Counted from the stretch's first letter, positions 2,286 to 51,625 are shown. The stretch is 64,000 bases of DNA from an uncultured Oscillospiraceae bacterium (GCA_964525015.1 CAZGFY010000007.1:2414-66413); one strand, 5' to 3'. The notes: a model not told the origin generated them from the sequence alone. A program made the numbers and translations.

Positions 2286-2293
2286 AAAATTAA

Positions 2294-2336
2294 GGCTGTC
2301 GCAAATGATTTAAATCATTGCGACAGCCTTTTTATA
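2294..2336 (+). terminator. Intrinsic terminator after the phn transporter genes
   Basis: Stem GGCTGTCGCAATGATT / AATCATTGCGACAGCC (one bulged A in the left arm), followed by TTTTTAT. Confidence 0.8.
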
Positions 2337-2492
2337 TTGCGTAAATTAAAAAAATACTACTATATCGGATACTCTAGCCTTACTCACATAATCCGAACCG
2401 CCTAAAATCGGATAATTTTTCTCTAAAACTTGAGTTTAATTCACTTATAAGGCAAAAGTGGAGATTTAATTATAAGATGTATAAATAAGAGT

Positions 2493-3533
2493 TTATCTTG
2501 TTGTGCCACGATTAATAAAAGATGGGGTCATATATGTTTTTGAAATAGCACGAAGTTTACTTAAATTTGGATTTAAATTAATTTTTGTTTGAAGTGAATA
2601 GACAGCTGAAATTCCTAAATCTTCTTTTGAGCATTTAATTGTTGATAAACTTGGCTCACACATTGTTGCAATGGGAATATCATCAAAACCTATAATAGAA
2701 ACATCGTTAGGAACAGAATATCCAGCAGATTTAATTGCCCTTAATGCAGCGATGGCTAAAACATCATTATCTGCAAAAAAAGCATCAGGTAAGCTAGGAT
2801 TTTCATTTAACCAGTTTTCAACATCAGTGTAGGCATCTGTTGAAGAAAGTCCGATATCAAGTGTTGTGAATAATGATAGATTGTTTTTTGAAAGTTCGTT
2901 TATTAATCCAGCCTCACGCTCATCGAAATTTAAAAGTCTGGTTTTTGATTTTAAATATCCAATGGTTTTACACCCAGAGCGAAGTAAAGATTTTACAGCA
3001 AGTGCACCACCTGAAAAATTATCATTACCAATACTATCCTCTTCGCCAGCTAAAATCATTGTATCGATAATTACTTTAGGTATATCTTTTGTTATATCCA
3101 TAAGTTTTCGCATATCGCTTGCAGTTTCGCTATTTACGTCGGTTGCAAGGATAATAAGCCCGTCAACATTAGTTACAAGTTCTATTGTGCTTTGATTTAA
3201 AATATTTTTAACATCTATATATTTTACCAAAGTGTTGTATCCTATTTCTTGGGCGGCTGTGTCAACTCCATATAAAACACAACTTTCAAACATACTATGT
3301 TCTCCACTTTTAACATAGCTATCTGTTATAACAAGATAGCAGATAGTTTTACTTTGTGAAGAATTTTTTGTATCATTATTTTGAGGTAAACGCATACCGT
3401 GTTCAATTGCAGACTTTAAAACTATTTCTCTAGTTTTCTTGCTAACACCATCCTTACCATTTAAAGCAAGGGAGACAGCAGCGGCTGATATTCCGAGTTT
3501 TTTTGCTAATTCTTTAGCTGTTAACTGTTCCAT
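2493..3533 (-). CDS. LacI-family transcriptional regulator
   Basis: N-terminal HTH LTAKELAKKLGISAAAVSLALNGKDGVSKKTRE plus a periplasmic-binding-fold sugar domain (IIGFDDIPIA). Divergent from the sugar ABC operon. Confidence 0.85.
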   Translation of the reverse strand: MEQLTAKELAKKLGISAAAVSLALNGKDGVSKKTREIVLKSAIEHGMRLPQNNDTKNSSQSKTICYLVITDSYVKSGEHSMFESCVLYGVDTAAQEIGYNTLVKYIDVKNILNQSTIELVTNVDGLIILATDVNSETASDMRKLMDITKDIPKVIIDTMILAGEEDSIGNDNFSGGALAVKSLLRSGCKTIGYLKSKTRLLNFDEREAGLINELSKNNLSLFTTLDIGLSSTDAYTDVENWLNENPSLPDAFFADNDVLAIAALRAIKSAGYSVPNDVSIIGFDDIPIATMCEPSLSTIKCSKEDLGISAVYSLQTKINLNPNLSKLRAISKTYMTPSFINRGTTR

Positions 3534-3823
3534 ATTAAACTCCTTAACTAAATATTAAGTTAATATTTAGTGATTATTAATTTGATTATATACTAATATT
3601 TATTTAAAATCAAGCATAAATTAATTAAAATAAATATTTCTAAAATATTAATTAAAAAATAATATTTTATTAAGTAACTTACAGAATTAGCCTTAAACTA
3701 GATAATATATACTAAAATAATCAACATTAAGGGTGTCTATTGACGAAATACACAAATTAAATATTAATAAATTGAGTCTATATACAAAATTTTGGTAAAT
3801 GGCAAAAATTAGCTAATTTTCAC

Positions 3824-3853
3824 TTGACTAAACGATGCTTATTGATTTATTAT
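3824..3853 (+). promoter_or_regulatory. Candidate sigma-A promoter of the sugar ABC operon
   Basis: TTGACT at 3824-3829, with TATTAT/TATATA-like -10 hexamers 17-18 nt downstream. AT-rich context, so weak support. Confidence 0.3.
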
Positions 3854-3899
3854 ATAAATAAGTTAAGGGGAATTAAGTTGATTTCCTAAATCTTTAAAA

Positions 3900-5036
3900 A
3901 TGAAAGGACAAAAGAAAATGAAAAAACTGATTGCATTAATTTTAGCGGCAGCATTATCTCTAAGTCTTGCTGCATGTAGCTCTTCAACAGAAACAACAAC
4001 AACTGAAGAAGAAACTACTACAACAACAACAACGGAAGGTACTGAAGGTGAAGGCACAGGTCTTATCGGCGTTGCAATGCCTACTAAAGATCTTCAAAGA
4101 TGGAACCAAGATGGTACAAATATGGAAGCTCAACTAGTTGAAGCTGGATATGAAGTTGACCTGCAATATGCAGCTAATGATATTGCAACACAAGTTAGCC
4201 AAATTGAAAATATGATTTCAAATGGCGTAGAAGTTTTAGTTGTTGCTTCAATCGACGGCTCAGCTCTTGGAACAGTTATGTCACAAGCTAAAGAAGCAGG
4301 AATTCCTGTTATCGCTTATGATAGATTAATTATGGACTCAGATGCAGTTTCATACTATGCAACATTTGATAACTATGATGTTGGTGTAAAACAAGGTTTA
4401 TACATTGAAGAAGCATTAGATTTAAAAAATGCTGGTGATAAAACATACAATATCGAATTTATTACTGGTGACCCAGGGGATAATAATATCAACTTCTTCT
4501 TTGGTGGTGCTATGAGTATTCTTCAGCCTTACCTAGACGCTGGCACATTAGTTTGTCCATCAGGTCAAACAGAACAATCAGCAGTTGCAACAGCTAACTG
4601 GGCAACAGATGCAGCTCAATCTCGTTTTGAAAACATTTTATCTTCATACTACTCAGATGGAACTCAATTAGATGCAGTTTTAGCTTCTAACGACTCAACT
4701 GCTATTGGTGTAGCGAATGCTTTAGCTTCTTCATACACAGGCGAATACCCAGTTCTAACTGGTCAAGACTGTGATATCGTTGCAGTTCAAAACATCGTTG
4801 ATGGAAAACAATCAATGTCAGTATTTAAAGATACTCGTGACTTAGCAGAAAAAACAGTTGAAATGGTTGATGCTATTATGAAAGGCAGTGAACCACCAGT
4901 AAACGATACAGAAACTTATGACAATGGAACAGGCGTTGTGCCATCATACCTATGTGAACCAGTTGTTGGAACACTTGACAATTACGAAGAATTATTAATT
5001 GAATCTGGATACTACACAGCAGATCAAATCCAATAA
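3900..5036 (+). CDS. CUT2 sugar ABC transporter substrate-binding lipoprotein (ChvE/XylF-like)
   Basis: Lipobox LSLAAC, a Thr/Glu-rich linker, then GVAMPTKDLQRWNQDG, VIAYDRLI and SYYATFDN blocks typical of ChvE-type multiple-sugar binding proteins. ATG 3918 is an alternative start. Confidence 0.85.
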   Translation: MKGQKKMKKLIALILAAALSLSLAACSSSTETTTTEEETTTTTTTEGTEGEGTGLIGVAMPTKDLQRWNQDGTNMEAQLVEAGYEVDLQYAANDIATQVSQIENMISNGVEVLVVASIDGSALGTVMSQAKEAGIPVIAYDRLIMDSDAVSYYATFDNYDVGVKQGLYIEEALDLKNAGDKTYNIEFITGDPGDNNINFFFGGAMSILQPYLDAGTLVCPSGQTEQSAVATANWATDAAQSRFENILSSYYSDGTQLDAVLASNDSTAIGVANALASSYTGEYPVLTGQDCDIVAVQNIVDGKQSMSVFKDTRDLAEKTVEMVDAIMKGSEPPVNDTETYDNGTGVVPSYLCEPVVGTLDNYEELLIESGYYTADQIQ

Positions 5037-5132: not shown

Positions 5133-6668
5133 ATGTCTGAATACATTTTAGAAATGAAAGATATCACAAAAACTTTTGGACCAGTTAGGGCGCTAGATAC
5201 TGTTAATCTTAAAGTTAAAAAAGGGCATATACACGCATTAGTTGGCGAAAATGGTGCAGGAAAATCCACTCTTATGAACGTGCTTTCAGGAGTTTATGCT
5301 CACGGAAGCTACACAGGGGATATTATTTATGAGGGTGATGTCTGTAAATTTTCAAAAATACATGATAGTGAAAATAAGGGAATTATAATTATTCACCAAG
5401 AACTCGCTTTAATACCTGAAATGTCGATTGGTGAAAATATGTTTTTAGGAAATGAAAAAGGCAAAAAAATGGCAATCGACTGGGATAATACATATAGTGA
5501 AGCCGATAAATACCTAAAAACAGTTGGCTTAAAAGAGCCTTCAAGAACTAAAGTTAGCGAACTAGGTGTTGGTAAACAGCAACTAGTTGAAATAGCAAAA
5601 GCTTTAGCTAAAAATGCAAAACTACTTATCTTAGATGAACCAACTTCATCTTTAAATGAGGCTGATTCATTGGCACTTCTTGAATTGTTATTACAATTTA
5701 AAGAGGAAGGAATGACATCGATTATAATATCTCATAAATTAAATGAGGTATCATATGTTGCAGATGAGATAACTGTTATTCGTGATGGTCAAAGTATTGA
5801 AACAATTGAAAAAGGAAATACTTCAATTGACGAAAACCGTATTATTAAAGGTATGGTTGGCAGAGAATTATCTGATAGATTCCCAAAAAGGCTAGAAAAT
5901 TATGTCACAGATGAAGTGGCTTTAAAAGTTGATAATTGGTCGGTTATTCATCCAATTTATCGCGATAGAAAAGTTGTTGATGATGTGTCTTTTAATATTA
6001 AAAAAGGTGAAGTTGTTGGTTTTTCAGGGCTTCAAGGAGCAGGAAGAACAGAGCTTGTTATGAGTTTGTTTGGAAAAAGCTATGGCCAGTATGCTGGTGG
6101 GAAAATGAGCATTCTAGGAAATGAAGTTTCACCTAAAAATGAAAAAGAAGCCATTAAAATGGGTCTTGCCTATGTAACAGAGGATAGAAAAGGCAATGGA
6201 CTGATTTTAAGTAATCCAATAAGAATAAACACAACTTTAGCAAATCTTACTGGAGTTTCTAAAAATAGCGTTATTGATATTGATATGGAGCATAAAGTTT
6301 CAAAAGAATATGTTGAAAAAATGCACACTAAATGTTCTGGAGTAGAGCAAAATGTTGGAAACTTATCTGGTGGTAATCAGCAAAAGGTATTGCTTTCAAA
6401 ATGGATGTTTTCAAATCCAGAAGTGCTGATATTAGATGAGCCAACTAGGGGTATCGATGTTGGTGCAAAATATGAAATCTACTGCATTATCAATGATTTA
6501 GTTTCAATGGGGAAATCAGTTATTATAATTTCATCTGAAATGCCTGAAGTTTTAGGGATGAGTGATAGAATTTATGTTATGAATGAAGGCAAAATTGTTG
6601 GCGAATTCAAAACAGAAGATGCAACTCAAGAAAAAATTATGGCAAGTATCTTAAAATCAGGTGCATAA
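5133..6668 (+). CDS. Sugar ABC transporter ATP-binding protein, duplicated cassette (GguA/XylG-like)
   Basis: Two ABC cassettes: GENGAGKST / LGVGKQQLVEIAKAL / LILDEP, and GLQGAGRTE / LSGGNQQKVLLSKW / LILDEPTRGIDVGAK. Confidence 0.9.
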   Translation: MSEYILEMKDITKTFGPVRALDTVNLKVKKGHIHALVGENGAGKSTLMNVLSGVYAHGSYTGDIIYEGDVCKFSKIHDSENKGIIIIHQELALIPEMSIGENMFLGNEKGKKMAIDWDNTYSEADKYLKTVGLKEPSRTKVSELGVGKQQLVEIAKALAKNAKLLILDEPTSSLNEADSLALLELLLQFKEEGMTSIIISHKLNEVSYVADEITVIRDGQSIETIEKGNTSIDENRIIKGMVGRELSDRFPKRLENYVTDEVALKVDNWSVIHPIYRDRKVVDDVSFNIKKGEVVGFSGLQGAGRTELVMSLFGKSYGQYAGGKMSILGNEVSPKNEKEAIKMGLAYVTEDRKGNGLILSNPIRINTTLANLTGVSKNSVIDIDMEHKVSKEYVEKMHTKCSGVEQNVGNLSGGNQQKVLLSKWMFSNPEVLILDEPTRGIDVGAKYEIYCIINDLVSMGKSVIIISSEMPEVLGMSDRIYVMNEGKIVGEFKTEDATQEKIMASILKSGA

Positions 6669-20343: not shown

Positions 20344-23300
20344 TTGAATAAAAATATAAATCCATCTTACAATTTAGAAAATATAGGAAAGGACTTCTTC
20401 GATATGAAACATTTAAATATTTTAATTAAAGATATTAATGATATTAAAATTAATTCAGAGATAAAACAATTTTTAAATCAAGAAAATTGTTTAGTTAGAA
20501 TCCATGTTTCAAGTGCTGATACAAATTTTGCATTAGATTTAGCAAAAGAAATTAGAAATATACTACCTAAATCAAATATTATGGGAACAGCAGTTGATGG
20601 AGTTCTTTTTAATGGCGAAATTTATGATGATTTTCATTTAATATCAATAATTTCATTTGATAAAGCAAAAATTTTTACAAAACTTATTTCAGGTAATGAA
20701 TTAAAAGTAAATGAGCTTTCACATGCCATTTCAAATACAGTTTTAAATTATGAGCCATCTACAATATTTTTGTTTTTAGGTGATGAAAATAAAGAAATAC
20801 ATAAAATATGCCAGCATCTTAGCAAAAAAGCAAACAAGGCGTCATTTGTTGGTGGGGTTTCTGGATATTTAAATAAAAAAACAGGTGAAGTTACAAATTA
20901 TGTTTTTGATGATAAAAAGCTAATTAAAAATGGCTGTGTTTTAGCTGGTGTAAGTAAAGAGTATATATTATCTTATACTAATGCTGTTGTGGGTCATGAA
21001 GCTATTTCTAAAATTTACACTATAACAGATACAACCGATACCTATATAAATGAAATTGACAATCAAAATGCCAATGATTGGATGAGAGAAAATTTAGGAT
21101 TTGATAAATTATACAAAAACGATGATAAAGCACTTGAGAACGATGTATTAATAAGGCTGCCATTCGTTTTGGAAAACGAAGATGGTGCTAGTAGAATTTT
21201 AGCTTTTAATGAAAAAGAAAAGAAATTCACACCAAATTATACTCTACTAGATAAAAATCAAAAGTTTCGAGTTGGCTATTTAAGTACTCTTAAAAGCGTT
21301 GAAGAGTGGCAGAATGTATGCTTTGATTTAGAAAACACATCAGTTGAATATATGTTTACCTATTCCTGTTTATATAGAAGAATTTATTTAGAAAATCTTT
21401 CAAAAATCGAAATGAGTCTATTTAAAGATACAGAAATTGCAGGCGCATTTTTGCGTGGTGAAATAGGCACAAAAAATGGAGTTACTAGATATTATAACGG
21501 AACGTGTAGTTTGGTAACTTTGGCTGATGAAGAAAAATATATTGATATAAATTTTTCGGCTTTTCAATCTATATTGCAGTTAAATGATTCAATTAAATTA
21601 GAAGAAAATTTAAAAGCAGTTTCAGCAAATAAAAACTTATTAATTAGCAGTTTAATATTAGATGAATTAAATAATATAAAAGATGAATCAAATGAAAACA
21701 CAATGCTAACCTTTGTTAAAGACAATAAAAAGGATGAATATTCAAAAGTTTGTCTTATAAATAATAAAGTTTTTGATTTGAATTTTAATGAAATACTGGG
21801 TGCAAAGCAAAAAGAAGTATCTGAAAAAATGCTCAAAAGTGCACAGATGTTTTTACAAGATGAGTATAAAAATGTTGCTTTAGATATTTATAGATATAAT
21901 AAAGATAGCTTTTTTGTTTTGATAAATGAAATTAAAAATGATGCTAAAGTTATTGAGATTACTCAAAGGCTATACAATCATCTAAATAAAATTGCTGTTT
22001 TAGATAAAGAGTTTAAGATATTTAATAATATAACTATTGCTTTAAAATTTGAAAGAATACAAAAACTTGTGTTAAGCCAAAAAAATGAAGGCGAAGAAAA
22101 ATTTAAAAATAATTTTAATATATTTAGTGAAAAAGATGAGAGTTTAAGTTTGCAAGAAGAATTTGAACTTGTTGCAAATTTAAAAGAAGTTGTTAAAAAT
22201 GAAAGCGTTATGCCATATGTTCAAGGAATTTATGATAACATAAATGGTGGATTTTATGCATATGAAGTTATAATGCGCCTTATGGCATCTTCTGGTGAAG
22301 TTTTGTTTCCAGAGCATTTTTTACCAATAGCAAAAAAACACGATGTATATTTAGATTTAAGTTATATATTAGTAGAAAAAGTTTTAGATTTTGTAAAATT
22401 TAAAAATGAAAAAATATTAATTAATATATCTGTTAAAGACGTTGAGTCGGATAAGTTTTGCAAAATGGTTTTTTCAAAATTGAGTGAGATGGAAAAACCA
22501 AGCAATATAATATTTGAAGTTTGTGATTTAAATCAAATTTTATATATTGAAAAACTTAAACTTTTCCTTTTTAAATTAGAGCAATTAAATATGAAGTTTG
22601 CAATTGATAATTTTGAAATTGCAGATTATGATATTGTAAGAGAAAATGAAATTAAGGTAAGCTATATAAAAATTACTAGTAGCTATCTAAGCGATATAAG
22701 CGAGCAAAGCAGTGTGGATAATATTTTTACATCAGCTAAAAAAATGAATGCACAGCTTATGGTAAAGCATGTTGAAACAGCAGGAATGCAAAAACAGGTT
22801 TTATCCTACTCAATTAAATACACTCAAGGATTTTTCTTTTCTCGCCCAGTTTCTATTGAAGAACCTAATGCAATGATGCAAAATGATACTTCAAAAGAGA
22901 ATGTTGCGGATATAAGCGACAAGGAAGAACTATCAGATAAAACAAATAAAAAATCAAAAAATCTTGTGTATTTTGGAATTCTTACATTTATTATTATAGC
23001 AGTTATTGCTACAATAAATTTTACAAGCGAAAATTTAAAGCTTGTTTCTAATATGAATGATATATTTTTAACAGAGCTTGCAAGTGGGCTTTCTGAACAG
23101 GTTTCGGATAAAATGAATGACTCAAAAGAATTTTTAATTTTAGCTAGTGATTTTGTGGTAAGTGATGGATACGAAAAAGAAGATTTAATTAAAAATCTAG
23201 GCGATATGTCTAATCAAACAACCTTTGATGAAATTTACATCTCTTTTAATGGTCAAACCGCTGTGAATTATAATGATGAGGAACTTTTAATTGATATCAA

Positions 23301-24435
23301 TAGCGTTTATGGAAGTGCAACAAAGGATGAAGTAGTTATTTCATCCCCAATAAAAATATTAAATCGAAGCTTAAATACTGAGCTGTTTATTCTTAGCTAT
23401 CCAATACTTGATGGCGATGAAAAAATAGGAGAGATATACGGAGTTTATTATACAAATAGTTTTTCAGAAGTATTAGATTTAACGGTTTTTGGTGGAGAAG
23501 CATTTTTTCATATATGCGAAGTTGATGGAACTGCAGTTGTAATTAGTGGTGATAATAATAATTTGTTTTCCGGTGGAGATATGTATACCTTTATTGATTC
23601 CCTAGATATGACAAATGATAATACATCTCAAAGCATTAGACTAGATATGGAAAACTCAAACCCAGCTTTACTAAAATATGAAATAGCAGGTCAAGAAAGA
23701 ACAGCAGTAATGCTAAGAATTAAGGGTACTGATTGGTGTGCTATTAGCATAGTTGTAGATGAAACGGTTAATACCATGCAAACAGATATTACTTCAAATA
23801 CATTTAATTTTGTTGCTTTTGTATTGGTAATGATTATTTTATACAGTGTTTTACTAATCGAAATTGAAAGAAGAAATAAAAAGGAACTATTAAAAGCCTT
23901 AGAATCAAGCAATCTTTTAGCAAATTCACTTCAGACAAATATGGAAATGGATTCTCTTACAAGAACATTTAGCCGTTCTGCAATCGAAGAGAAAATTTCA
24001 AATATTATAGACAAACCTCAAGAAAGTCAAAAGAGTGCAGTAGTTTTACTTGATGTGGATAATTTTAAAACTGTAAATGATACATATGGACATAAAACAG
24101 GGGATTTATTCCTTCAAGAATTAACCTCAGCTGTAAAACGCAGTTTGAGAGGCGGAGATATGATTGGAAGAATTGGTGGCGATGAATTTGTTATTTTATT
24201 AAATGATATAGTTGATTTGGAGATAACAAAATCAATTTTAACAAGAATACTTTCTAATGTTAATAAAATTGAAATTAAAGGAGTTTCTTTAGAAGAGGTT
24301 TCAATTAGTGCGGGCGTAGCTATTGTTCCAAAAGAAGGTATTGATTACGATGAAATAAGCACAAAAGCAGATAGAGCACTATATCTTGCAAAACTTGCAG
24401 GAAAAAATAAATTTATGATATATGATGAATTATAG
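20344..24435 (+). CDS. Composite c-di-GMP signalling protein: N-terminal sensor-like region, degenerate GGDEF, degenerate EAL, TM, Cache-like ectodomain, TM, intact GGDEF
   Basis: The C-terminus has RGGD-MIGRI-GGDEF, i.e. an I-site RxxD 5 residues before GGDEF (24175-24189). The EAL-like domain (~22201-22860) has EVI for EAL and AIDNFE for DDFG. YRYNKDSFFVLI resembles a decayed GGDEF. TM segments lie near 22964 and 23803. The TTG 20344 start is doubtful. ATG 20404 has GGAAAGGA upstream. Confidence 0.75.
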   Translation: MNKNINPSYNLENIGKDFFDMKHLNILIKDINDIKINSEIKQFLNQENCLVRIHVSSADTNFALDLAKEIRNILPKSNIMGTAVDGVLFNGEIYDDFHLISIISFDKAKIFTKLISGNELKVNELSHAISNTVLNYEPSTIFLFLGDENKEIHKICQHLSKKANKASFVGGVSGYLNKKTGEVTNYVFDDKKLIKNGCVLAGVSKEYILSYTNAVVGHEAISKIYTITDTTDTYINEIDNQNANDWMRENLGFDKLYKNDDKALENDVLIRLPFVLENEDGASRILAFNEKEKKFTPNYTLLDKNQKFRVGYLSTLKSVEEWQNVCFDLENTSVEYMFTYSCLYRRIYLENLSKIEMSLFKDTEIAGAFLRGEIGTKNGVTRYYNGTCSLVTLADEEKYIDINFSAFQSILQLNDSIKLEENLKAVSANKNLLISSLILDELNNIKDESNENTMLTFVKDNKKDEYSKVCLINNKVFDLNFNEILGAKQKEVSEKMLKSAQMFLQDEYKNVALDIYRYNKDSFFVLINEIKNDAKVIEITQRLYNHLNKIAVLDKEFKIFNNITIALKFERIQKLVLSQKNEGEEKFKNNFNIFSEKDESLSLQEEFELVANLKEVVKNESVMPYVQGIYDNINGGFYAYEVIMRLMASSGEVLFPEHFLPIAKKHDVYLDLSYILVEKVLDFVKFKNEKILINISVKDVESDKFCKMVFSKLSEMEKPSNIIFEVCDLNQILYIEKLKLFLFKLEQLNMKFAIDNFEIADYDIVRENEIKVSYIKITSSYLSDISEQSSVDNIFTSAKKMNAQLMVKHVETAGMQKQVLSYSIKYTQGFFFSRPVSIEEPNAMMQNDTSKENVADISDKEELSDKTNKKSKNLVYFGILTFIIIAVIATINFTSENLKLVSNMNDIFLTELASGLSEQVSDKMNDSKEFLILASDFVVSDGYEKEDLIKNLGDMSNQTTFDEIYISFNGQTAVNYNDEELLIDINSVYGSATKDEVVISSPIKILNRSLNTELFILSYPILDGDEKIGEIYGVYYTNSFSEVLDLTVFGGEAFFHICEVDGTAVVISGDNNNLFSGGDMYTFIDSLDMTNDNTSQSIRLDMENSNPALLKYEIAGQERTAVMLRIKGTDWCAISIVVDETVNTMQTDITSNTFNFVAFVLVMIILYSVLLIEIERRNKKELLKALESSNLLANSLQTNMEMDSLTRTFSRSAIEEKISNIIDKPQESQKSAVVLLDVDNFKTVNDTYGHKTGDLFLQELTSAVKRSLRGGDMIGRIGGDEFVILLNDIVDLEITKSILTRILSNVNKIEIKGVSLEEVSISAGVAIVPKEGIDYDEISTKADRALYLAKLAGKNKFMIYDEL

Positions 24436-42639: not shown

Positions 42640-42770
42640 AAGTCTGTTTCAGGGCGAGGTGTAATTCCTCACCGGTGGTTATAGTCCACGAGCTGGAAAA
42701 TATTTCTGGTTGATTTGGTGAAACTCCAAAACCGACGGTATAGTCCGGATGAAAGAAACAAGCATTTTTT
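42640..42770 (+). promoter_or_regulatory. FMN riboswitch (RFN element)
   Basis: Conserved RFN blocks AGGGCGAGGTGTAATTCCTCACCGGTGGT, ATAGTCCACGAGC, GATTTGGTGAAACTCCAAAACCGACGGT and ATAGTCCGGATGAAAGAAAC. P1 pairs GTTTC with GAAAC. Confidence 0.93.
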
Positions 42771-43525: not shown

Positions 43526-43548
43526 ATTACACGAAAAGTAAATACTAC

Positions 43549-43650
43549 ACTTATAAAGAATGGCAGAGGGACTGGCCCTATGAAGCCTAGCAACCTATCT
43601 AAATTAATAGAAAAGGTGCTAAATCCAGCGGTGAAACCGAGAGATAAGTA
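43549..43650 (+). promoter_or_regulatory. SAM-I riboswitch (S-box)
   Basis: CTTATAAAGAATGGCAGAGGGACTGGCCCTATGAAGCCTAGCAACC ... AAGGTGCTAAATCCAGC ... GAGAGATAAG. All S-box core blocks are present. P1 pairs CTTAT with ATAAG. Confidence 0.93.
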
Positions 43651-43710: not shown

Positions 43711-44862
43711 ATGAGAAAAGAATTTTTTACATCTGAATCAGTTACAGAAGGGCATCCAGATAAAATCGCAGACCAAATTTCAGACGCTGTGCTAGATGCT
43801 ATATTAGAAAACGACCCAGACGGGCGTGTTGCTTGCGAAACCTGCGTTACAACGGGGCTTGTAATGTGTATGGGCGAAATTACAACAAATTGCTATGTTG
43901 ATATTCCAAAGCTTGCAAGAAATGTTATAAGAGATATTGGATACACAAGAGCAAAATTTGGCTTTGATAGCGAAACTTGCGCTGTTATGACAACGATTGA
44001 TGAGCAATCAGTTGATATTGCACTTGGAACAAATGATGAAGTTGGTGGAGCAGGCGATCAGGGTATGATGTTTGGTTTTGCTTGCGATGAAACTAAAGAA
44101 TTAATGCCACTTCCAATTTCACTAGCTCATAAATTATCAAAAAGGCTAACTGACGTTAGAAAAGATGGAACTTTAGAATATCTAAGACCAGATGGTAAAA
44201 CACAAGTTACAGTTGAGTATGATGATGGCGTGCCAACTAGAATTGATACAGTTGTTGTATCTTCACAGCACGGGCCAGAAGTATCTTTAGAAAAATTAAG
44301 AGAAGATATTATAAACACTGTTGTAAAACCAATCATTCCAGCTAATCTACTTGATGAAAACACAAAATATCACATAAACCCAACTGGGCGTTTTGTGGTT
44401 GGTGGACCACAAGGGGATAGCGGATTAACAGGAAGAAAAATCATAGTAGACACTTACGGCGGATATGCTCGTCACGGTGGCGGTGCCTTTTCAGGCAAAG
44501 ACCCAACTAAGGTTGATAGAAGTGCAGCTTATGCAGCAAGATATGTTGCGAAAAATATAGTTGCAGCTGGATTTGCTAAAAAATGCGAAGTTCAATTAGC
44601 TTATGCAATCGGCGTGAAAGAGCCAGTTTCAATTTTAGTTGAAACTTTTGGCACTAACACAGTTGAAGTTGAAAAAATCGAAAAAGCAGTTGCACAAACT
44701 TTTGATTTAACACCAAAAGGAATTATCGACACGCTAGAACTTAGAAAACCAATCTATCGTAAGTTGGCAGCTTACGGACATATCGGAAGAGAAGACCTAG
44801 GCGTTAAATGGGAACTAACAGATAAAGCAGAAGAACTAAAAACAGCAGTAGCTGGTATGTAA
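43711..44862 (+). CDS. metK: S-adenosylmethionine synthetase
   Basis: [46 protein letters not shown]. The ORF-track start at 43675 lies inside the riboswitch terminator. ATG 43711 is preferred. Confidence 0.97.
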
Positions 44863-44939
44863 TAAAATTAATTGATATTTAAAAAGTCGAAAATATAAAG
44901 TTTTCGACTTTTTTTGATAAAAAACGACATTTTATTAAT
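44548..44939 (+). repeat. Direct repeat A, copy 1 (metK 3-prime 315 nt + terminator + 23 nt)
   Basis: Compared by eye base for base with 46781-47172 (offset 2233). No difference found over 392 bp. Confidence 0.9.
44881..44916 (+). terminator. metK terminator
   Basis: AGTCGAAAA-TATAAAG-TTTTCGACT followed by a T-run. Confidence 0.85.
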
Positions 44940-45069
44940 GATATGTTAATATAGAATATTATATATATTAACATATATTGGGTATAATAATATTGTAACT
45001 AGTTATAATGCGATAACAATTAATTATTTAAAACAATTATTAGAAATTTATTTGATGGAGGTAATAGTT

Positions 45070-45780
45070 ATGAAAAAATTAGTCAGTATTTTAATTGCTC
45101 TATCTATGGTGGTTGGATTATCACCGTCTGTTTTTGCTAATTCAAGTGGAAGCACTATTGTACTGAAAAGTGATGGCATTACACTCGATAAAACATTTGA
45201 AGTTTTTCCAGAGGTTGAAAAAATATCTAATATGTATAAATCGAATATCGGGAATATTCTTCAAGCTCAAGTATTTGATTCAAACTACAATATTGTATTA
45301 GATACTATTGAAGTTTATTCACAAGAAAAAATTATATTAGAAGATGAAATAATTTATGAGTATAAAGTTAGTGTTGAGTCAAATGGAGATATAAATATTG
45401 CGAGAGTATTTGGGCCAAAAACAACATTGTCTGGAGGGTGGGAATACTACTCATTTGGGAAGAGTCTAAGAAATGGTATAGCTCAATTTACAGGACATAA
45501 TGGAAATGGTCAACCAGTACATGTGATATTGTCAAATGTATACATATCAATATACAATGGTGTGAACGTTCCAGATACTTTACCTGCTACAGGTCACTTT
45601 ATTGGAGGTTCTGTAGGTAGTTCATTTATAGGAGCTGGCTTTGAAAGTGGATATAATATAAACGAATTAAGGTCAGAGTTTGTTATACGTGAGACGGATG
45701 TAGATGCATACGCTAAATTTGGGGATGTAGCAAGATTTCGAGTAGGAGATGATACATGGAAATTCGATGTGTTTCTATAA
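45070..45780 (+). CDS. Secreted hypothetical protein, cassette 1 (X1)
   Basis: GGAGG 8 nt before ATG 45070. Sec signal peptide MKKLVSILIALSMVVGLSPSVFA. Paralogue of 47311..48003 with shared blocks YEYK..V..NG..NIARVFG, GGW.YYS, NGIA and DTW.F. Family not recognised. Confidence 0.7.
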   Translation: MKKLVSILIALSMVVGLSPSVFANSSGSTIVLKSDGITLDKTFEVFPEVEKISNMYKSNIGNILQAQVFDSNYNIVLDTIEVYSQEKIILEDEIIYEYKVSVESNGDINIARVFGPKTTLSGGWEYYSFGKSLRNGIAQFTGHNGNGQPVHVILSNVYISIYNGVNVPDTLPATGHFIGGSVGSSFIGAGFESGYNINELRSEFVIRETDVDAYAKFGDVARFRVGDDTWKFDVFL

Positions 45781-45865
45781 TAATTTTAGAAAATAAAAAT
45801 GTTCTTTACTGTAGTTAGATAGCCAAATATACTTTAGATATAGCTAATAAGTCAAGGAGGATATT

Positions 45866-46717
45866 ATGAAAAACCTTATCACAGTAAGTATAATATTATT
45901 AGTGATTTTAACTGGATGTACTTCGAGTGAAACATCAAAAGAGAATTTAACAGCTGATGAAAGTAGTGAAAAATTAGTTTATTTGCAAGAGATAAATTCA
46001 GCATTAGAAAAATCGAACGAATTTGAAACTATTGAAGTTCAGGGTGTTTACACTTTAAACGGGTATACACAAATGAGCACCAGATTATTTTCAAGAAATC
46101 CTAATATGTATTATCTTTATCCAACTAATAAAGAAGATGTACCATCTGGGGCATATTATGAAAATATCTATATAGAAGATGAAAACGTTATCGGAAGTAT
46201 AAGGGATGCATCATTTAATGGTGGTAAGGAAGGTGAGTTAGCATTTATTGAAACTGAGATTGATACTATTTTTATAGAAGGGGAATTTACTTCTAATATC
46301 TTTGATATGGGATTAACTCAAAGTATAGATTTTATAAAAAGTATAGAAAAGGAAGATAATGTTTACACTTTAATAGCTAGTGATGCTTATTTTGAAAATG
46401 TGCGTGAGAATACAATAGAAAATATTAAAGAGCAAGGAAAAGAATTGCCAGAAGAAATGCAAGGGATTGTTAGCCAAAATATTGCATATATCGAGAGCCA
46501 AGAAAGCCCAAAATTAACAGTTATAATAAATATTGAAGATGAAAAAGCTATAAAAATAGAGCAGATAAGCAGTATGATGGCTTCACAATTTGCAGAAAAT
46601 TATACAGTCACTCAGGAAAAATTCTTAACGGAAAGTAATACCAAAATGCTTGTAATAAGATTTAATGATGAAGAAATAAGAAATGAAATCTTAAAAGTTT
46701 ATGATATGTATAAATAA
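45866..46717 (+). CDS. Hypothetical acidic lipoprotein, cassette 1 (Y1)
   Basis: AAGGAGG SD. Lipobox LTGC. Paralogue of 48123..48974 with shared blocks YL.EIN.AL, FETIE, SIEK.DNVYT..ASD.YFE and an identical C-terminal IRFNDEEIRNEILKVYDMYK. Confidence 0.7.
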   Translation: MKNLITVSIILLVILTGCTSSETSKENLTADESSEKLVYLQEINSALEKSNEFETIEVQGVYTLNGYTQMSTRLFSRNPNMYYLYPTNKEDVPSGAYYENIYIEDENVIGSIRDASFNGGKEGELAFIETEIDTIFIEGEFTSNIFDMGLTQSIDFIKSIEKEDNVYTLIASDAYFENVRENTIENIKEQGKELPEEMQGIVSQNIAYIESQESPKLTVIINIEDEKAIKIEQISSMMASQFAENYTVTQEKFLTESNTKMLVIRFNDEEIRNEILKVYDMYK

Positions 46718-46786
46718 TGCTAAAAAGAGTGGCGAAAGTCACTCTTTTTTCATATAATAATTTAATAAATAAAAGAAAGGGCGAAA
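46659..46786 (+). repeat. Direct repeat B, copy 1 (lipoprotein-gene tail + terminator + 36 nt)
   Basis: Matches 48916-49044 except for one synonymous aat/aac change and one extra A in an A-run. Confidence 0.85.
46722..46750 (+). terminator. Terminator after Y1
   Basis: AGAGTGGC-GAAA-GTCACTCT (GNRA-type tetraloop) followed by TTTTT. Confidence 0.8.
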
Positions 46787-47095
46787 AATATAGTTGCAGC
46801 TGGATTTGCTAAAAAATGCGAAGTTCAATTAGCTTATGCAATCGGCGTGAAAGAGCCAGTTTCAATTTTAGTTGAAACTTTTGGCACTAACACAGTTGAA
46901 GTTGAAAAAATCGAAAAAGCAGTTGCACAAACTTTTGATTTAACACCAAAAGGAATTATCGACACGCTAGAACTTAGAAAACCAATCTATCGTAAGTTGG
47001 CAGCTTACGGACATATCGGAAGAGAAGACCTAGGCGTTAAATGGGAACTAACAGATAAAGCAGAAGAACTAAAAACAGCAGTAGCTGGTATGTAA
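46781..47095 (+). pseudogene. metK: metK 3-prime fragment (last 104 codons), duplicated copy lacking the N-terminal two thirds
   Basis: The ORF-track entry 46847..47095 is identical to the MetK C-terminus. Homology starts at 46781 ([12 protein letters not shown]...). There is no canonical start codon or SD of its own. Confidence 0.85.
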
Positions 47096-47113
47096 TAAAA
47101 TTAATTGATATTT

Positions 47114-47149
47114 AAAAAGTCGAAAATATAAAGTTTTCGACTTTTTTTG
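47114..47149 (+). terminator. Duplicated metK terminator
   Basis: Same hairpin as 44881-44916. Confidence 0.8.
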
Positions 47150-47310
47150 ATAAAAAACGACATTTTATTAATATAAAATTTAAAAAAAATTATTATTGTA
47201 GTTAAGTTTTTAACCTATAATATAAATGTAATCGATTACTTTTATATAGAACTTAATTTGTAATGGTTCTATGACATTTGGATGTATAGTGGGATAAGGG
47301 GGTAATTTCA

Positions 47311-48003
47311 ATGAAAAAGGTTATAAGTGTAATGATAATGATTTCGATATTTTTTATGATGTCTGCAACAACTTTTGCAACATCGGATATGAGTGTTGAT
47401 GAAATGAATGTAAAAGAGTTGACGTTTGATAAGGCATTTGAAATTTTTCCGCAAGCTGAGGTGATTTCAAATATTTATAAAGTAAATAATATACAAGTAC
47501 TTAGGAATGAGTTTACTACGCTAGAAAACCATTTGGGTTTAAATTATAATGAAGTGTATTCTGATCATAAAATAGTTGTAGAAGATGGTATAGTATACGA
47601 ATATAAAATAAATGTGAACAATAATGGTGAAGTTAATATAGCAAGAGTTTTTGGTAATAATTTAAATGGTGGATGGGCATATTATTCTGATAGAAAAACG
47701 CTATCAAATGGTATAGCAACTTATTTAGGTGGAACAGGAGATACAATTATATATGTTACTTTAATAAATATAAATTTTACTATTTATTATGGAGTGAGTA
47801 ATAAAGATTTCATTTCAAGCACACATTCTTTTGCGTCAGGTAGTATTGCAGGAACAGTTAATAATGTGGGAGGTCAAAATTTATTTAATGAGCGTACTGG
47901 ATTTAAGAAGGTAGAAACAAGTAGTAATGCATACGCTGCATATGCTGGAGTAGCAATGTTTGAGCTGGGTTCAGACACATGGAATTTTTATTACATTCCT
48001 TAA
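47311..48003 (+). CDS. Secreted hypothetical protein, cassette 2 (X2)
   Basis: GGGGG SD. Signal peptide MKKVISVMIMISIFFMMSATTFA. Diverged paralogue of X1. Confidence 0.7.
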   Translation: MKKVISVMIMISIFFMMSATTFATSDMSVDEMNVKELTFDKAFEIFPQAEVISNIYKVNNIQVLRNEFTTLENHLGLNYNEVYSDHKIVVEDGIVYEYKINVNNNGEVNIARVFGNNLNGGWAYYSDRKTLSNGIATYLGGTGDTIIYVTLININFTIYYGVSNKDFISSTHSFASGSIAGTVNNVGGQNLFNERTGFKKVETSSNAYAAYAGVAMFELGSDTWNFYYIP

Positions 48004-48122
48004 GTATTAAATGTTGATGAAGTTTTATTTATATTAATAATTTATTAACATAAAACCATTAAAATGCAAATGTGTAAATGTTATAATATATAATATAAAT
48101 GAAATGATTGGAGGAAACTAAT

Positions 48123-48974
48123 ATGAAAAAACTAGTTGTTTTTAACGTTTTATTATTTTTGGTTTTAGTCGGATGTTCGCAAGATGAAATAAGTGTTGAA
48201 ACTACTGCAAATGTGGGTCAAGGTGTAAACCTTGAATATTTAGAAGAAATAAACACAGCACTTACGAATAGCGAAAATTTTGAAACTATTGAGTTAGAAA
48301 GAAATTCAAGCTTTAATCAGTCAAGTCAAAAGCATATAACATTGATTTCAAAAGGTCCGAATATGGGATATAGTTATCCGGTGTATGAAGATGAAAGTAT
48401 GATGCAGTATTATTATGGAGATATCTACATAGAAGAAGATAATTTTATTGCTTGGATTGTTTCGATGGATGATGATAAAGAACTTACTATAATGCCTCAA
48501 GAAGAAAATTATTTTTATCTCAATGGGGAGGTTAAGTCTGATTATTTCAAAATTAGTTTATTAGAAAATCCTGAATTTATTCAAAGTATAGAAAAGAAAG
48601 ACAATGTTTATACTGTTGTGGCAAGTGATAAATATTTTGAGTACACTTTAGAAGAAACGATTAAAAATATACAAGAAATAACCGACAAGGCTCCAGAAGA
48701 CGGTAAAGAATCAGCACAAGCAAGTGCTAATCAGTTTATAGAATACAATCAAAATTTAGAAGAACAAAAATTAACGATTGAAATAATAGTTGAGAACGAT
48801 ATGGTTGTGAGCTACTATGCTCTATCTAGTATGATGGCACCACAATATACCAATGATTTTAAAGTAACTAAAAAAAAATACTATTCAGAAACTGGTAGTA
48901 AAATAGAGATAATCCGATTTAATGATGAAGAAATAAGAAACGAAATCTTAAAAGTTTATGATATGTATAAATAA
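48123..48974 (+). CDS. Hypothetical acidic lipoprotein, cassette 2 (Y2)
   Basis: GGAGG 8 nt before ATG 48123 (the ORF-track TTG 48108 is part of the SD region). Lipobox LVGC. Diverged paralogue of Y1. Confidence 0.7.
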   Translation: MKKLVVFNVLLFLVLVGCSQDEISVETTANVGQGVNLEYLEEINTALTNSENFETIELERNSSFNQSSQKHITLISKGPNMGYSYPVYEDESMMQYYYGDIYIEEDNFIAWIVSMDDDKELTIMPQEENYFYLNGEVKSDYFKISLLENPEFIQSIEKKDNVYTVVASDKYFEYTLEETIKNIQEITDKAPEDGKESAQASANQFIEYNQNLEEQKLTIEIIVENDMVVSYYALSSMMAPQYTNDFKVTKKKYYSETGSKIEIIRFNDEEIRNEILKVYDMYK

Positions 48975-49044
48975 TGCTAAAAAAGAGTGGCGAAAGTCAC
49001 TCTTTTTTCATATAATAATTTAATAAATAAAAGAAAGGGCGAAA
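48916..49044 (+). repeat. Direct repeat B, copy 2
   Basis: See 46659-46786. Confidence 0.85.
48979..49008 (+). terminator. Terminator after Y2
   Basis: Same GAAA-tetraloop hairpin as 46722-46750. Confidence 0.8.
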
Positions 49045-49047
49045 GAT

Positions 49048-49347
49048 ATGTTTTATCATTTATTAAATATTATATACGCAGCCTTTTTTACGCTAGGGGT
49101 TTATTTTGTGTTTGAGATGATTTTAAAATCTTTTCAAAAGCAAAATATTCCAAAATCTATAACGATAATTTTAGAGGAAACAGAAAAAGAAACAAATAGA
49201 AATATAAGATTTTTAAAGAGTAATTTAATAAATCATAATATAGTTTTAATTTCTTATAAAGAAAATGATGAAGATAAAGAGATAAAAAGAATAAAAAAAG
49301 AAGATTTACACAAATTTATCTTAAATGAATTATTTACAAATACCTAG
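49048..49347 (+). CDS. Small hypothetical membrane protein (99 aa)
   Basis: One N-terminal TM (IIYAAFFTLGVYFVFEMIL) and a Lys/Glu-rich tail. Its SD (AAAGGG) lies inside repeat B. Confidence 0.5.
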   Translation: MFYHLLNIIYAAFFTLGVYFVFEMILKSFQKQNIPKSITIILEETEKETNRNIRFLKSNLINHNIVLISYKENDEDKEIKRIKKEDLHKFILNELFTNT

Positions 49348-49420: not shown

Positions 49421-51625
49421 TTGCAGGAACTTTTAAAGCTAGAAGGCGATATAGTTAATATAACTTTTAGAAGTAGCGAAACTGGATTTACTGTTTTAGA
49501 ACTTCTATCAGGTGATGAATATATAACAGCAGTAGGCGAGATGGCAGAAGTAGCAGCAGGACAAAAACTTGTGGTTTTTGGCTCCTATGTAAGCCATCCT
49601 TCTTTTGGTATGCAATTTAAAATCCAAAGCTATGAAGTTGTTTTTCCATCTAGCGTTAATGCGATACTTACATATCTTTCAAGTGGGATTATTAAAGGGA
49701 TAGGCCCTGTGACAGCTAAAAGAATAGTTGACACCTTTTTAGAAGACACTTTTTTAATACTAGACGCTCACCCTGAAAAACTAGGCGAGATTAAAGGGTT
49801 ATCCTATAAAAAGGCGCTTGAAATACAAAGCGAATTTAAAAGAATATATGGAGTACAAGATGCAATAAGGGAATTTTCAGCGTTTGATATCAGTGCTTCT
49901 GAGGCTATAAATTTATACACTCAGTATGGCGCAGATGTTGTTGTGAAAATTAAAGAAAATCCGTATTTAATCTGCTTTGCGCCTTGCTTTCTTCCTTTTG
50001 AAAAGGCAGAAGAAATTGCAAACACCCTAACTTTTGAGTATGATGCAAAAGAAAGAATAGACGGTGCAGTTTTATATGTTTTAAATCACAACACCCAAAA
50101 AGGACACACCTGTGTGCCAAGAAAAAAACTTATAAAAACTGTTTCGGCTTTTATATCTGTTGAAGAGGATAAAATTGATAGCTATATAAATGAGATGCTA
50201 GATGAAAATAAAATTATCTTAGAAGAAATTAATAGCGAAGAATTTATTTTTATTCCAGAATTATATTCAGCTGAAATGATAGGTGCACAAAAGATTTGCG
50301 ATTTGCTTTATAGAAAGGTGAGAGCGTATGAAAATTTTGAAGAAAAGATAAAAGATATTCAGTTTCTTCATAATATTCAGTATGCACCACTTCAAATTAA
50401 AGCTATAAAAACAGTTTTGGAAAATAATGTTTGCGTTATAACAGGCGGTCCTGGTACTGGTAAAACAACCTTGGTTAAAGGGATAATCAGCCTTTTTGAA
50501 TCAAGGGCAGATAGAGTTTTTTTATGTGCGCCAACTGGGAGGGCTGCAAAAAGACTTAGCGAATTATCAAAAAAAGAGGCAAAAACAATTCATCGTTTAT
50601 TAGGGTGCGAAAAAAGTGGGCGAGATGGCGTTAAATTTTCAAAGAATATGGAAAGTCCGCTTGATTGTGAAGTGCTAATTGTTGATGAATTTTCAATGGT
50701 GGACACTCTTTTATTCAGCCATTTAATAACGGCTGTTAAAGAAAACACAAGGGTAATTTTAGTTGGAGATTATAATCAGCTTCCAGCCGTTGGGGCAGGG
50801 AATATTTTAAAAGATTTAATTCAAAGTAATATAGTTCCAAAAGTGGAGCTCACTGAGATATTTCGCCAAGCTAGAGAGAGCGATATAATAGTTAATGCTC
50901 ACTCAATTAATAATGGAGAAATCCCAAAAACAACTAAAAAGCAATCCGATTATTATTTTATTAGCAGTAATGAAATGAATGCTGGAAATCTTATTTCGGA
51001 TTTAATAACTCAAAGACTTCCAAAGGCATATGGATTTGATACAAATGAAGATATACAAATTCTTTCTCCATCAAGAAAAAAACGAGGTGGAACTCAAAAT
51101 CTAAATGCTATTTTACAAGAGGTTATTAATCCGGAAAATAATTCTAAACATCAAATAAAAATAAACGGGATAACCTATCGCGTGGGCGATAAAGTTATGC
51201 AAACTAAGAATAATTATGATATTCAATACACTAAAGACGATGGCGAAAATGAAACAGGGGTTTTTAATGGTGATATTGGGTATATAATATCAATAGATAA
51301 GTTTAATAGGGAATTAAAAGTTAGGATTGAAGATAAGGTTTATGATTATCAGGGCGAAGATATACAGCAATTAGAGCACGCGTGGGTGATAACAGTGCAT
51401 AAAAGCCAAGGCTGTGAATTTAAAGCTGTTATATTAAGTATTCCAGACACTGTAAAAGAACTTCAATATAGAAACCTACTTTATACAGCATTTACAAGGG
51501 CAAAAGAGCTTTTAATAGTGGTTGGTAAACCTGAAATTTTATCTAATATGGTTAAAAATAATAAAACTCAATTAAGATATTCTGCGATAAAACATTTTAT
51601 GACGGAGTATTATTATGTTGATTAA
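49421..51625 (+). CDS. recD2: RecD2-type ATP-dependent DNA helicase
   Basis: TTG start. N-terminal FRSSETGFTVLEL OB-like region, Walker A GGPGTGKTT, Walker B VDEFSMVD, and SF1B blocks VGDYNQLPAVGAG and TVHKSQG. Confidence 0.9.
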   Translation: MQELLKLEGDIVNITFRSSETGFTVLELLSGDEYITAVGEMAEVAAGQKLVVFGSYVSHPSFGMQFKIQSYEVVFPSSVNAILTYLSSGIIKGIGPVTAKRIVDTFLEDTFLILDAHPEKLGEIKGLSYKKALEIQSEFKRIYGVQDAIREFSAFDISASEAINLYTQYGADVVVKIKENPYLICFAPCFLPFEKAEEIANTLTFEYDAKERIDGAVLYVLNHNTQKGHTCVPRKKLIKTVSAFISVEEDKIDSYINEMLDENKIILEEINSEEFIFIPELYSAEMIGAQKICDLLYRKVRAYENFEEKIKDIQFLHNIQYAPLQIKAIKTVLENNVCVITGGPGTGKTTLVKGIISLFESRADRVFLCAPTGRAAKRLSELSKKEAKTIHRLLGCEKSGRDGVKFSKNMESPLDCEVLIVDEFSMVDTLLFSHLITAVKENTRVILVGDYNQLPAVGAGNILKDLIQSNIVPKVELTEIFRQARESDIIVNAHSINNGEIPKTTKKQSDYYFISSNEMNAGNLISDLITQRLPKAYGFDTNEDIQILSPSRKKRGGTQNLNAILQEVINPENNSKHQIKINGITYRVGDKVMQTKNNYDIQYTKDDGENETGVFNGDIGYIISIDKFNRELKVRIEDKVYDYQGEDIQQLEHAWVITVHKSQGCEFKAVILSIPDTVKELQYRNLLYTAFTRAKELLIVVGKPEILSNMVKNNKTQLRYSAIKHFMTEYYYVD

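Follow-up and report, generated by a model that had tools for sequence, protein, structure and literature searches.

Two diverged copies of an X-Y gene pair lie downstream of metK

We analysed a 64,000-nucleotide (nt) stretch of DNA from an uncultured Oscillospiraceae bacterium (GCA_964525015.1 CAZGFY010000007.1:2414-66413; hereafter the window, numbered from its first letter), in which two copies of a two-gene unit lie in tandem between metK and a gene for a 99-residue protein. Each unit encodes a predicted Sec-secreted protein, termed X, followed by a predicted lipoprotein, termed Y (Table 1). X1 and X2 are 41% identical (E = 3e-55), as are Y1 and Y2 (E = 2e-68), and both similarities are far beyond chance. 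The divergence between X1 and X2 is distributed across the entire protein length, and the final 20 residues of Y1 and Y2 are identical.

The signal peptides and lipoboxes of X and Y were read by eye, not by a predictor. All four X proteins found in this work, two from the window and two from relatives described below, begin with an n-h-c signal peptide (pattern MKK-hydrophobic-AXA) and an AXA-type site, as is characteristic of proteins secreted by Sec and signal peptidase I (SPase I); their SPase-I-type cleavage sites are VFA/N, TFA/T, AFA/T, and LSA/N. The mature X1 and X2 proteins comprise 213 and 207 amino acids (aa), respectively, are acidic (isoelectric point (pI) about 4.7) and Cys-free, and mature X1 is β-rich. 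LPXTG, SLH, CWB2, or LysM anchoring was not found in X with Pfam, and a sortase motif was present at the C-terminus of none of the four X proteins. The Y proteins have the features of Lgt/Lsp substrates, namely an MKK-type n-region, an h-region, and a lipobox of the form [LVI][ASTVI][GAS]C, which was found in all five Y proteins: LTGC in Y1, LVGC in Y2, and LTGC, LTAC, and LSGC in the relatives on contigs L001, L003, and L004 (a fragment), respectively. Mature Y1 and Y2 each comprise 266 aa with a pI of about 4.2, and their sole cysteine is that of the lipobox.

The X1- and X2-upstream regions share a -10/leader motif, GGTATAAT..TGTA.CTAGTTA, which also occurs upstream of the Y gene of L001. 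The terminator scan identified a hairpin and T-run after each Y gene and none between X and Y in either unit, an operon-like layout, and the X leaders contained no riboswitch or leader RNA matched by Rfam. As predicted from these signals, each unit is an autonomous two-gene cassette consisting of promoter, X, Y, and terminator. The spacer between X2 and Y2 additionally holds a promoter-like site at 48059-48087 (TTAAAA-17-TATAAT with an upstream TG), and 48059-48105 repeats the promoter region ahead of X2 (47201-47232) at 78%, so Y2 may be transcribed separately.

A first-pass annotation of the same DNA had described this locus as an unrecognised two-gene module, and its description held apart from a GC anomaly discussed below: the four open reading frames (ORFs), with signal peptides ending in VFA or TFA and lipoboxes LTGC or LVGC, were recovered in the ORFs and translations; every conserved block that it quoted for X and Y is present in the alignments; and each gene has its own Shine-Dalgarno (SD) sequence, each unit its own promoter-like region and terminator.

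Table 1 Features of the X-Y locus and its flanks, in window coordinates (RBS, ribosome-binding site)
Feature	Position	Strand	Details
SAM riboswitch ahead of metK	43548-43650		Rfam SAM match, 81 bits
metK (S-adenosylmethionine synthetase)	43711-44862	+	Intact left flank; ORF and translation
Left conserved block, copy 1	44548-44939	+	Last 315 nt of metK, terminator, and about 26 nt beyond
metK terminator	44881-44913	+	Copy at 47114-47146
Promoter-like region and leader of unit A	44940-45069	+	-10 TATAAT 44983-44988; SD GGAGG 45058-45062
X1	45070-45780	+	ATG start at 45070; RBS GGAGG; Sec-type signal peptide, cleavage after VFA
Y1 lipoprotein	45866-46717	+	RBS AAGGAGG; lipobox LTGC
Right conserved block, copy 1	46659-46791	+	Last 59 nt of Y1, terminator hairpin, spacer up to the junction
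Y1 terminator	46722-46750	+	Hairpin and T-run (terminator scan)
Unit junction	46781-46791	+	11-nt microhomology GCGAAAAATAT; equals metK 44548-44558
Left conserved block, copy 2	46781-47172	+	Promoterless metK 3' fragment (last 105 codons, ending at 47097) and terminator copy
Promoter-like region and leader of unit B	47173-47310	+	-10 TATAAT 47216-47221; SD AAGGGGG
X2	47311-48003	+	RBS AAGGGGG; signal peptide, cleavage after TFA
Y2 lipoprotein	48123-48974	+	ATG at 48123; RBS GGAGG; lipobox LVGC
Right conserved block, copy 2	48916-49049	+	Y2 3' end, terminator, microhomology site 49039-49049
Y2 terminator	48979-49008	+	Hairpin and T-run (terminator scan)
99-aa protein	49048-49347	+	Right flank of the variable slot; one N-terminal hydrophobic helix (N-terminally anchored)
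recD2-like	49421-51625	+	After the 99-aa gene

The units share near-identical ends and meet at an 11-nt microhomology

When unit A (44548-46791) was aligned against unit B (46781-49049), the two left conserved blocks were found to be 100% identical over 392 nt, and the right blocks formed a 133-nt alignment of about 98% identity with 3 differences. Between the blocks, the identity drops abruptly to about 50% across the promoter, X, and the greater part of Y, in agreement with the earlier description of diverged alleles stacked between conserved flanks; the duplicated metK end and the shared Y end within these flanks had escaped that description. An 82-aa ORF at 46847-47095, in the second left block, is the C-terminus of MetK. 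The 11-mer at which the units meet also occurs at the far end of unit B (49039-49049) as GCGAAAGATAT, where it overlaps the start codon of the 99-aa gene; the two sites differ by one mismatch (46787 A versus 49045 G), and at this position the junction bears the metK-type base.

The simplest history that would yield this arrangement begins with the entry into the cell of DNA from another strain of the species in which the other allele was present. The right end of the incoming DNA would have recombined homologously, and its left end, inside metK, would have undergone an illegitimate join at the 11-nt microhomology directly ahead of the 99-aa gene. By this combination of illegitimate and homologous recombination, a second cassette would have been added beside the first, not exchanged for it, and the promoterless metK fragment would have been left as a scar. 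The same end product would also result if a tandem duplication had arisen first and an allele had then been replaced, or if a circularised fragment had integrated by a Campbell-type event.

The proposed history resembles homology-facilitated illegitimate recombination (HFIR), for which PMC6382021 (citing de Vries & Wackernagel 2002 and Prudhomme et al. 2002) describes joins at 3-10 bp beside a homologous anchor. As in HFIR during natural transformation, where a homologous anchor and a microhomology join add foreign DNA, the junction here matches at 10 of 11 bases, directly beside the homologous right flank; the difference is that the event at this locus is deduced from its end product.

The tandem arrangement, and only this aspect of the locus, might instead have arisen in assembly, by concatenation of two strain alleles of a single-copy locus, in which case one unit would be real. 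Co-existing strains would give the identical flanks seen on both units, the relatives of the locus are in metagenome-assembled genomes (MAGs), and the contig of the window is not traceable to reads. A strain bubble, however, creates no new junction; where the Y terminator region meets the metK interior, only 6+4 bases (46781-46791) are shared, far too few for a k-mer mis-join; and the metK-type base at the mismatched position is as in a true crossover. We therefore regard an artefact as unlikely and give it only a slim chance.

Relatives are few, and X precedes a lipoprotein in every case

The search for relatives combined a word-indexed search, which covered 5.8 billion proteins, and an exhaustive HMMER scan with an X1+X2 profile, which covered 1.84 billion cluster representatives; the exhaustive scan was made with X only, and the relatives of Y come from the word-indexed search and from the neighbourhoods of X. 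In the word-indexed search X1 retrieved only itself, and Y retrieved only Y1, Y2, and P0003 (65% identical). The profile scan added two further relatives of X, P0006 (E = 1e-12) and P0007 (E = 6e-8). The X/Y family consists of seven proteins, all singletons, among about 15 billion sequences. No relatives were found when the JGI metagenome contigs and viral contigs were scanned with the X and Y alignments, and tblastn against plasmids and phages gave no match. Carriage as phage or plasmid cargo was considered and rejected on the basis of these plasmid, phage, and viral-contig searches, the flanking genes (metK, recD2, comF, mreB, and pcrA), and a composition native to the window.

On contig L003, P0006 lies between a gene for an SNF-family transporter and one for a Crp regulator and is followed by a 295-aa lipoprotein (LTAC), which hhalign identified as a true homologue of Y (probability 98.4%, E = 7e-15 against the Y profile). 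On L004, the gene after P0007 runs off the contig, and its remaining 5' part encodes the beginning of a lipoprotein (LLSGC). X thus precedes a lipoprotein in four of four cases and in three unrelated contexts, namely the metK slot, the SNF-transporter/Crp locus of L003, and the DUF6487 locus of L004. The conserved X-Y pairing claimed earlier from the two units of the window extends to both additional X relatives, with homology of the partner to Y found in L003.

Two minor observations concern these neighbourhoods. Directly after the X-Y pair of L003, and before the Crp-family regulator and a GH3 gene, lie two paralogous peptide ORFs without family match (5670-5840 and 5890-6033; 56 and 47 aa, 35% identical, E = 2e-7). 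Genes for DUF6487 zinc-ribbon proteins recur near the family, directly upstream of the X-like gene in L004 (1504-1734) and in the slot of L002 (7770-8030, minus strand), and the window contains none; a link to X/Y and coincidence are both options.

The slot between metK and the 99-aa gene varies among species whose flanking genes are 86-98% identical. L001, a contig from the same assembly as L003, has a lone Y (P0003) directly between metK and the 99-aa gene, the single case of Y without X. The slot of L002, from an uncultured Oscillospiraceae MAG, is without X and Y and holds a DUF6487 zinc-ribbon gene and a gene for a 155-aa anchored protein; the latter was tested as a degenerate Y and is unrelated. 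The contents of the slot differ among all three related genomes, as would be expected from the rapid variation suggested in the first-pass annotation.

The sequence upstream of the lone Y in L001 contains the X-type -10/leader motif GGTATAATATAAATGTAGCTAGTTAC, as found upstream of X1 and X2, and its RBS is X-type (GGGGTAATA), not Y-type (AAGGAGGATATT or TGGAGGAAACT). The switch to Y1-like sequence falls exactly at the shared ATGAAAAA. As judged from these short motifs, L001 apparently lost X by a deletion between the start codons of X and Y. The X-type promoter and RBS ahead of Y point to secondary loss of X and not to independence of the two genes. By analogy, a lone Y would fit the pattern of orphan immunity or resistance genes. 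The earlier annotation had raised the question of whether the two genes always occur together and had taken independent occurrence as grounds against a joint module. The first part stands for X, which always precedes a lipoprotein; the second is partly realised by L001, where Y occurs alone, albeit behind the X-type signals.

The alleles are highly diverged and native in composition

The synonymous divergence (dS) of the flanking genes between the window and L001 is 0.5-0.74, which served as the baseline. By comparison, Y1 and the Y of L001 differ with a nonsynonymous divergence (dN) of 0.22 and a dS of 1.0, Y1 and Y2 with a dN of 0.51 and a dS of 1.3, and X1 and X2 with a dN of 0.54 and a dS of 2.2. 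Y1 shares 65% identity with the lone Y of L001 versus 41% with Y2 in its own genome. Together with the dS values, this suggests that the two allele lineages either are older than the split between the species or have passed laterally between members of the clade. The average dN/dS ratio (ω) is 0.2-0.4, above those of metK, recD2, and mreB and similar to that of comF.

The X and Y genes have a GC content of 28.5-32.8% and a GC content at third codon positions (GC3) of 18.6-21.5%, and the genes of the window average 31.9 ± 3.4% and 20.4 ± 2.6%, respectively. A low-GC anomaly had been noted at first pass from a 60-nt sample; locally, GC does fall as low as 17% over 60 nt, but the genes as a whole lie within the range of the window. 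A foreign origin by composition was accordingly ruled out, and the native GC and GC3 argue that the X/Y alleles are not recent imports from afar.

Neither protein could be assigned to a known family

Searches of X and Y against Pfam, NCBIfam, PHROGs, and PADLOC returned only signal-peptide-level matches or matches far below the curated cut-offs, and profile searches of PDB sequences returned no match, which upholds the initial impression that both proteins lie outside known families. X and Y represent two unclassified, almost orphan families.

The AlphaFold2 (AF2) model of Y had a predicted local distance difference test (pLDDT) score of 53.7 and a predicted template modelling (pTM) score of 0.42, with a predicted N-terminal helix followed by about 12 strands; the low-confidence model of X likewise consisted only of an N-terminal helix and then about 12 strands. 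When the weak Y model was compared with the PDB using Foldseek, the best matches fell almost entirely into one structural class and included LolA, LolB, LprG, RseB, DUF1329, staphylococcal Csa1, and SAOUHSC_02783, with E values of 9e-4 to 5e-2, probabilities of up to 0.99, template modelling (TM) scores of 0.2-0.46, and root-mean-square deviations of 10-16 Å. The same model had no match among viral structures. The LolA-like (PLLLF) fold is defined by an antiparallel β-barrel that does not close, comprises about 11 strands, and has a lid or plug of helical structure. None of the Pfam profiles of the LolA, LppX_LprAFG, MucB_RseB, or DUF4367 type was matched at E <= 10 by the four Y proteins. A LolA-like fold for Y is a lead from a weak model, not a result.

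On this lead, Y might be a LolA-like lipoprotein that binds and licenses X, a secreted enzyme that would work on a substrate or on the envelope of its own cell, in parallel to Clostridioides difficile, where the amidase CwlD is activated by GerS (bioRxiv 10.1101/2025.01.13.632879). The dominance of the LolA class among the Foldseek matches and the predicted secondary structure of Y would fit such a role, and PLLLF lipoproteins of monoderm spore-formers act via protein partners (bioRxiv 10.1101/2025.01.13.632879). With the PLLLF superfamily (SSF89392; GerS-CwlD and SsdC), Y would share the form of a monoderm Clostridia-type lipoprotein with a LolA/LprG/RseB-like weak model that is tied to a secreted partner. 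The model is poor and its TM scores are low, however; Pfam matches of the LolA, LppX, or RseB type are missing even at E 10; and no amidase or other enzyme signature was found in X. GerS and SsdC, moreover, are conserved sporulation and germination factors that are not hypervariable, stacked, or patchy, and neither the stacking of alleles with 41% identity nor the absence from L002 is what a housekeeping or developmental role would lead one to expect. We consider this explanation doubtful.

Several specific assignments were tried and rejected. An actual GerS-CwlD pair is contradicted by the lack of an Amidase_3 or other enzyme profile in X and by the missing pair in L002. X and Y are not a LolA/LolB-like paralogous pair, as their profiles are unrelated (probability 6.7%). 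A Firmicute polymorphic toxin (LXG/type VII secretion or, by analogy, Rhs/contact-dependent inhibition) was dismissed because no trafficking domain is present, the divergence is full-length, and the neighbours are housekeeping genes. X had no Pfam match at E <= 10 to the MACPF domain that marks toxins of the Bacteroidales secreted antimicrobial protein (BSAP) type, and the staphylococcal tandem lipoproteins (Lpl/Csa, DUF576) gave faint Foldseek matches to Csa1A/B (E = 0.01-0.07) and no Pfam match.

A candidate strain-competition module

The predicted topology, with X exported by the Sec pathway and released and Y tethered by its lipid to the exterior of the cytoplasmic membrane, suggests that X and Y function together outside the membrane. 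We propose, with a probability of roughly 35%, that X/Y is a strain-competition module in which the secreted X is countered by the cognate lipoprotein Y, an interpretation drawn from gene architecture and population pattern. X would be a diffusible antagonistic protein that acts on the envelope of related cells. The cognate Y on the producer surface would protect against it in one of two ways: as an immunity protein, by binding X, or as a variant of the surface target of X that is not susceptible. Different X-Y alleles would circulate in the population and be swapped by homologous recombination in the 3' end of metK and in the 3' end of Y with its terminator. A cell carrying stacked units would make two effectors and be protected against both.

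The observations that point to antagonism are the topology (Sec signals on four of four X proteins and lipoboxes on five of five Y proteins); the strict X-to-Y order, again in four of four, together with the lone Y kept in L001; the mosaic flanks, the variable slot, and an allele split that appears to be older than the species split; the very narrow and patchy distribution; and the microhomology at the junction. Precedents exist in TipC, in the BSAPs, and in recombining tandem immunity paralogues.

BSAP toxin genes adjoin a gene for a replaced, non-targeted orthologue of the surface target, and strains that lack the toxin keep the target (PMC4999547). BSAP-1 and BSAP-2 resemble X/Y in that the gene for a secreted, diffusible protein adjoins a divergent surface-molecule gene at a fixed site with strain variation (PMC4999547), and the surface gene without the toxin gene in other strains is comparable to the Y-only L001. 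They differ in having a MACPF domain, in belonging to diderm Bacteroidales, and in targeting an outer-membrane protein or lipopolysaccharide, whereas X, a putative toxin, has no Pfam domain.

TipC is a membrane-tethered extracytoplasmic immunity protein (PMC6193138), and conserved 5' and 3' blocks drive the recombination of tandem immunity paralogues (PMC9484751). The TelC/TipC loci accordingly resemble X/Y in that the protector is tethered on the outer face of the membrane, in the stacking of paralogues, and in end blocks that recombine, for which the identical 3' ends of Y1 and Y2 would be the counterpart (PMC6193138, PMC9484751). Unlike X, which has a Sec signal and no LXG or WXG domain, TelC is an LXG toxin delivered via the type VII system, and TipC has a transmembrane helix instead of a lipobox. 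The TelC/TipC loci also multiply immunity genes only; here whole X-Y units are stacked, each with its own promoter.

Among bacteriocins, those of class III are Sec-dependent, larger than 20 kDa, strain-specific, and accompanied by a downstream immunity gene, and they have recognisable peptidoglycan-hydrolase or other catalytic domains. The X-Y pair has the Sec signal, the size of >20 kDa, the directly downstream partner, and the strain-specific distribution, and differs in that no catalytic domain is detectable in X. Overall, the architecture resembles that of known effector/protection cassettes, and the defining features of the named families appear to be absent.

A number of points weigh against antagonism. 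Neither Pfam, NCBIfam, PHROGs, PADLOC, nor the PDB sequences identified a toxic, enzymatic, or pore-forming domain in X, and the AF2 model of X, built from a two-sequence alignment, had a pLDDT of 36 and Foldseek matches that were noise. The mature X protein is acidic, unlike most membrane-active bacteriocins, and Y is acidic too, so that charge complementarity is not evident. Y exceeds X in size, an unusual feature in an immunity protein, and the interaction between X and Y is presumed. Positive selection is not shown by dN/dS, as the ω values come with saturated dS. The co-occurrence statistics are thin, with only five loci, and the tandem arrangement comes from one assembly.

A non-toxic surface complex is nearly as likely. 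X and Y would form such a complex with Y docking or chaperoning X, and the pair would act as a receptor or antigen that diversifies under exposure to phage or host antibody, the stacking of units altering the surface repertoire. The same topology, gene linkage, mosaic, and ancient-allele pattern would be expected, and a sizeable Y that keeps a function alone in L001, the missing toxin domain of X, and the acidic, Cys-free character of both proteins, which is shared by many exported Gram-positive surface proteins, would all fit. X, however, has no wall- or membrane-anchoring motif; the pair is missing from the close relative L002 and from almost all sequenced bacteria and is hence dispensable; and a locus that lost X and kept Y is accounted for less readily than under antagonism.

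A broader form of the antagonism proposal, which is tentative at best, is that X/Y represents a new class of Sec-secreted antibacterial proteins in gut-type Clostridia. Specificity would depend on a LolA-like surface lipoprotein, which would be the target in sensitive strains and, as the cognate allele, the protection in producers, and alleles older than the species would be kept by frequency-dependent selection and accumulated by HFIR. Such a class would be the monoderm counterpart of the BSAP logic of a toxin plus a replaced receptor.

Almost nothing is known of protein-based antagonism in Oscillospiraceae-like gut Clostridia. If X/Y is indeed antagonistic, it would add a pair of new protein families through which strains of uncultured members of this group compete without contact, and the locus would also be a clean natural example of allele stacking through a microhomology join. 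If the surface complex applies, the locus would be a metK-adjacent hotspot of strain-level surface variation. The reach is limited either way, as the family is extremely rare and found in uncultured organisms only.

Genomic setting

The locus is embedded in a plus-strand housekeeping backbone, in which an FMN riboswitch, a RibU-like gene, the SAM riboswitch, and metK precede the two X-Y units and the 99-aa gene, and recD2-like, comF, mreB, pcrA, thyX, and tmk genes follow. The MetK protein is 88-91% identical to those of L001 and L002. The 99-aa protein, which had no family match, is 78-81% identical in L001 and L002 and lies between the variable slot and recD2. In L001, the recD2-like gene (1796-3998) is split into two called genes by undetermined bases (XXXX), which reflects an assembly gap and no real disruption. 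The FMN riboswitch (42641-42764, 113 bits in Rfam) precedes a 203-aa RibU-like membrane protein and, like the SAM riboswitch, is an ordinary cis-regulator. Elsewhere in the window, 20344-24435 encodes a 1363-aa FIST-EAL-GGDEF protein, a cyclic-di-GMP signalling protein.

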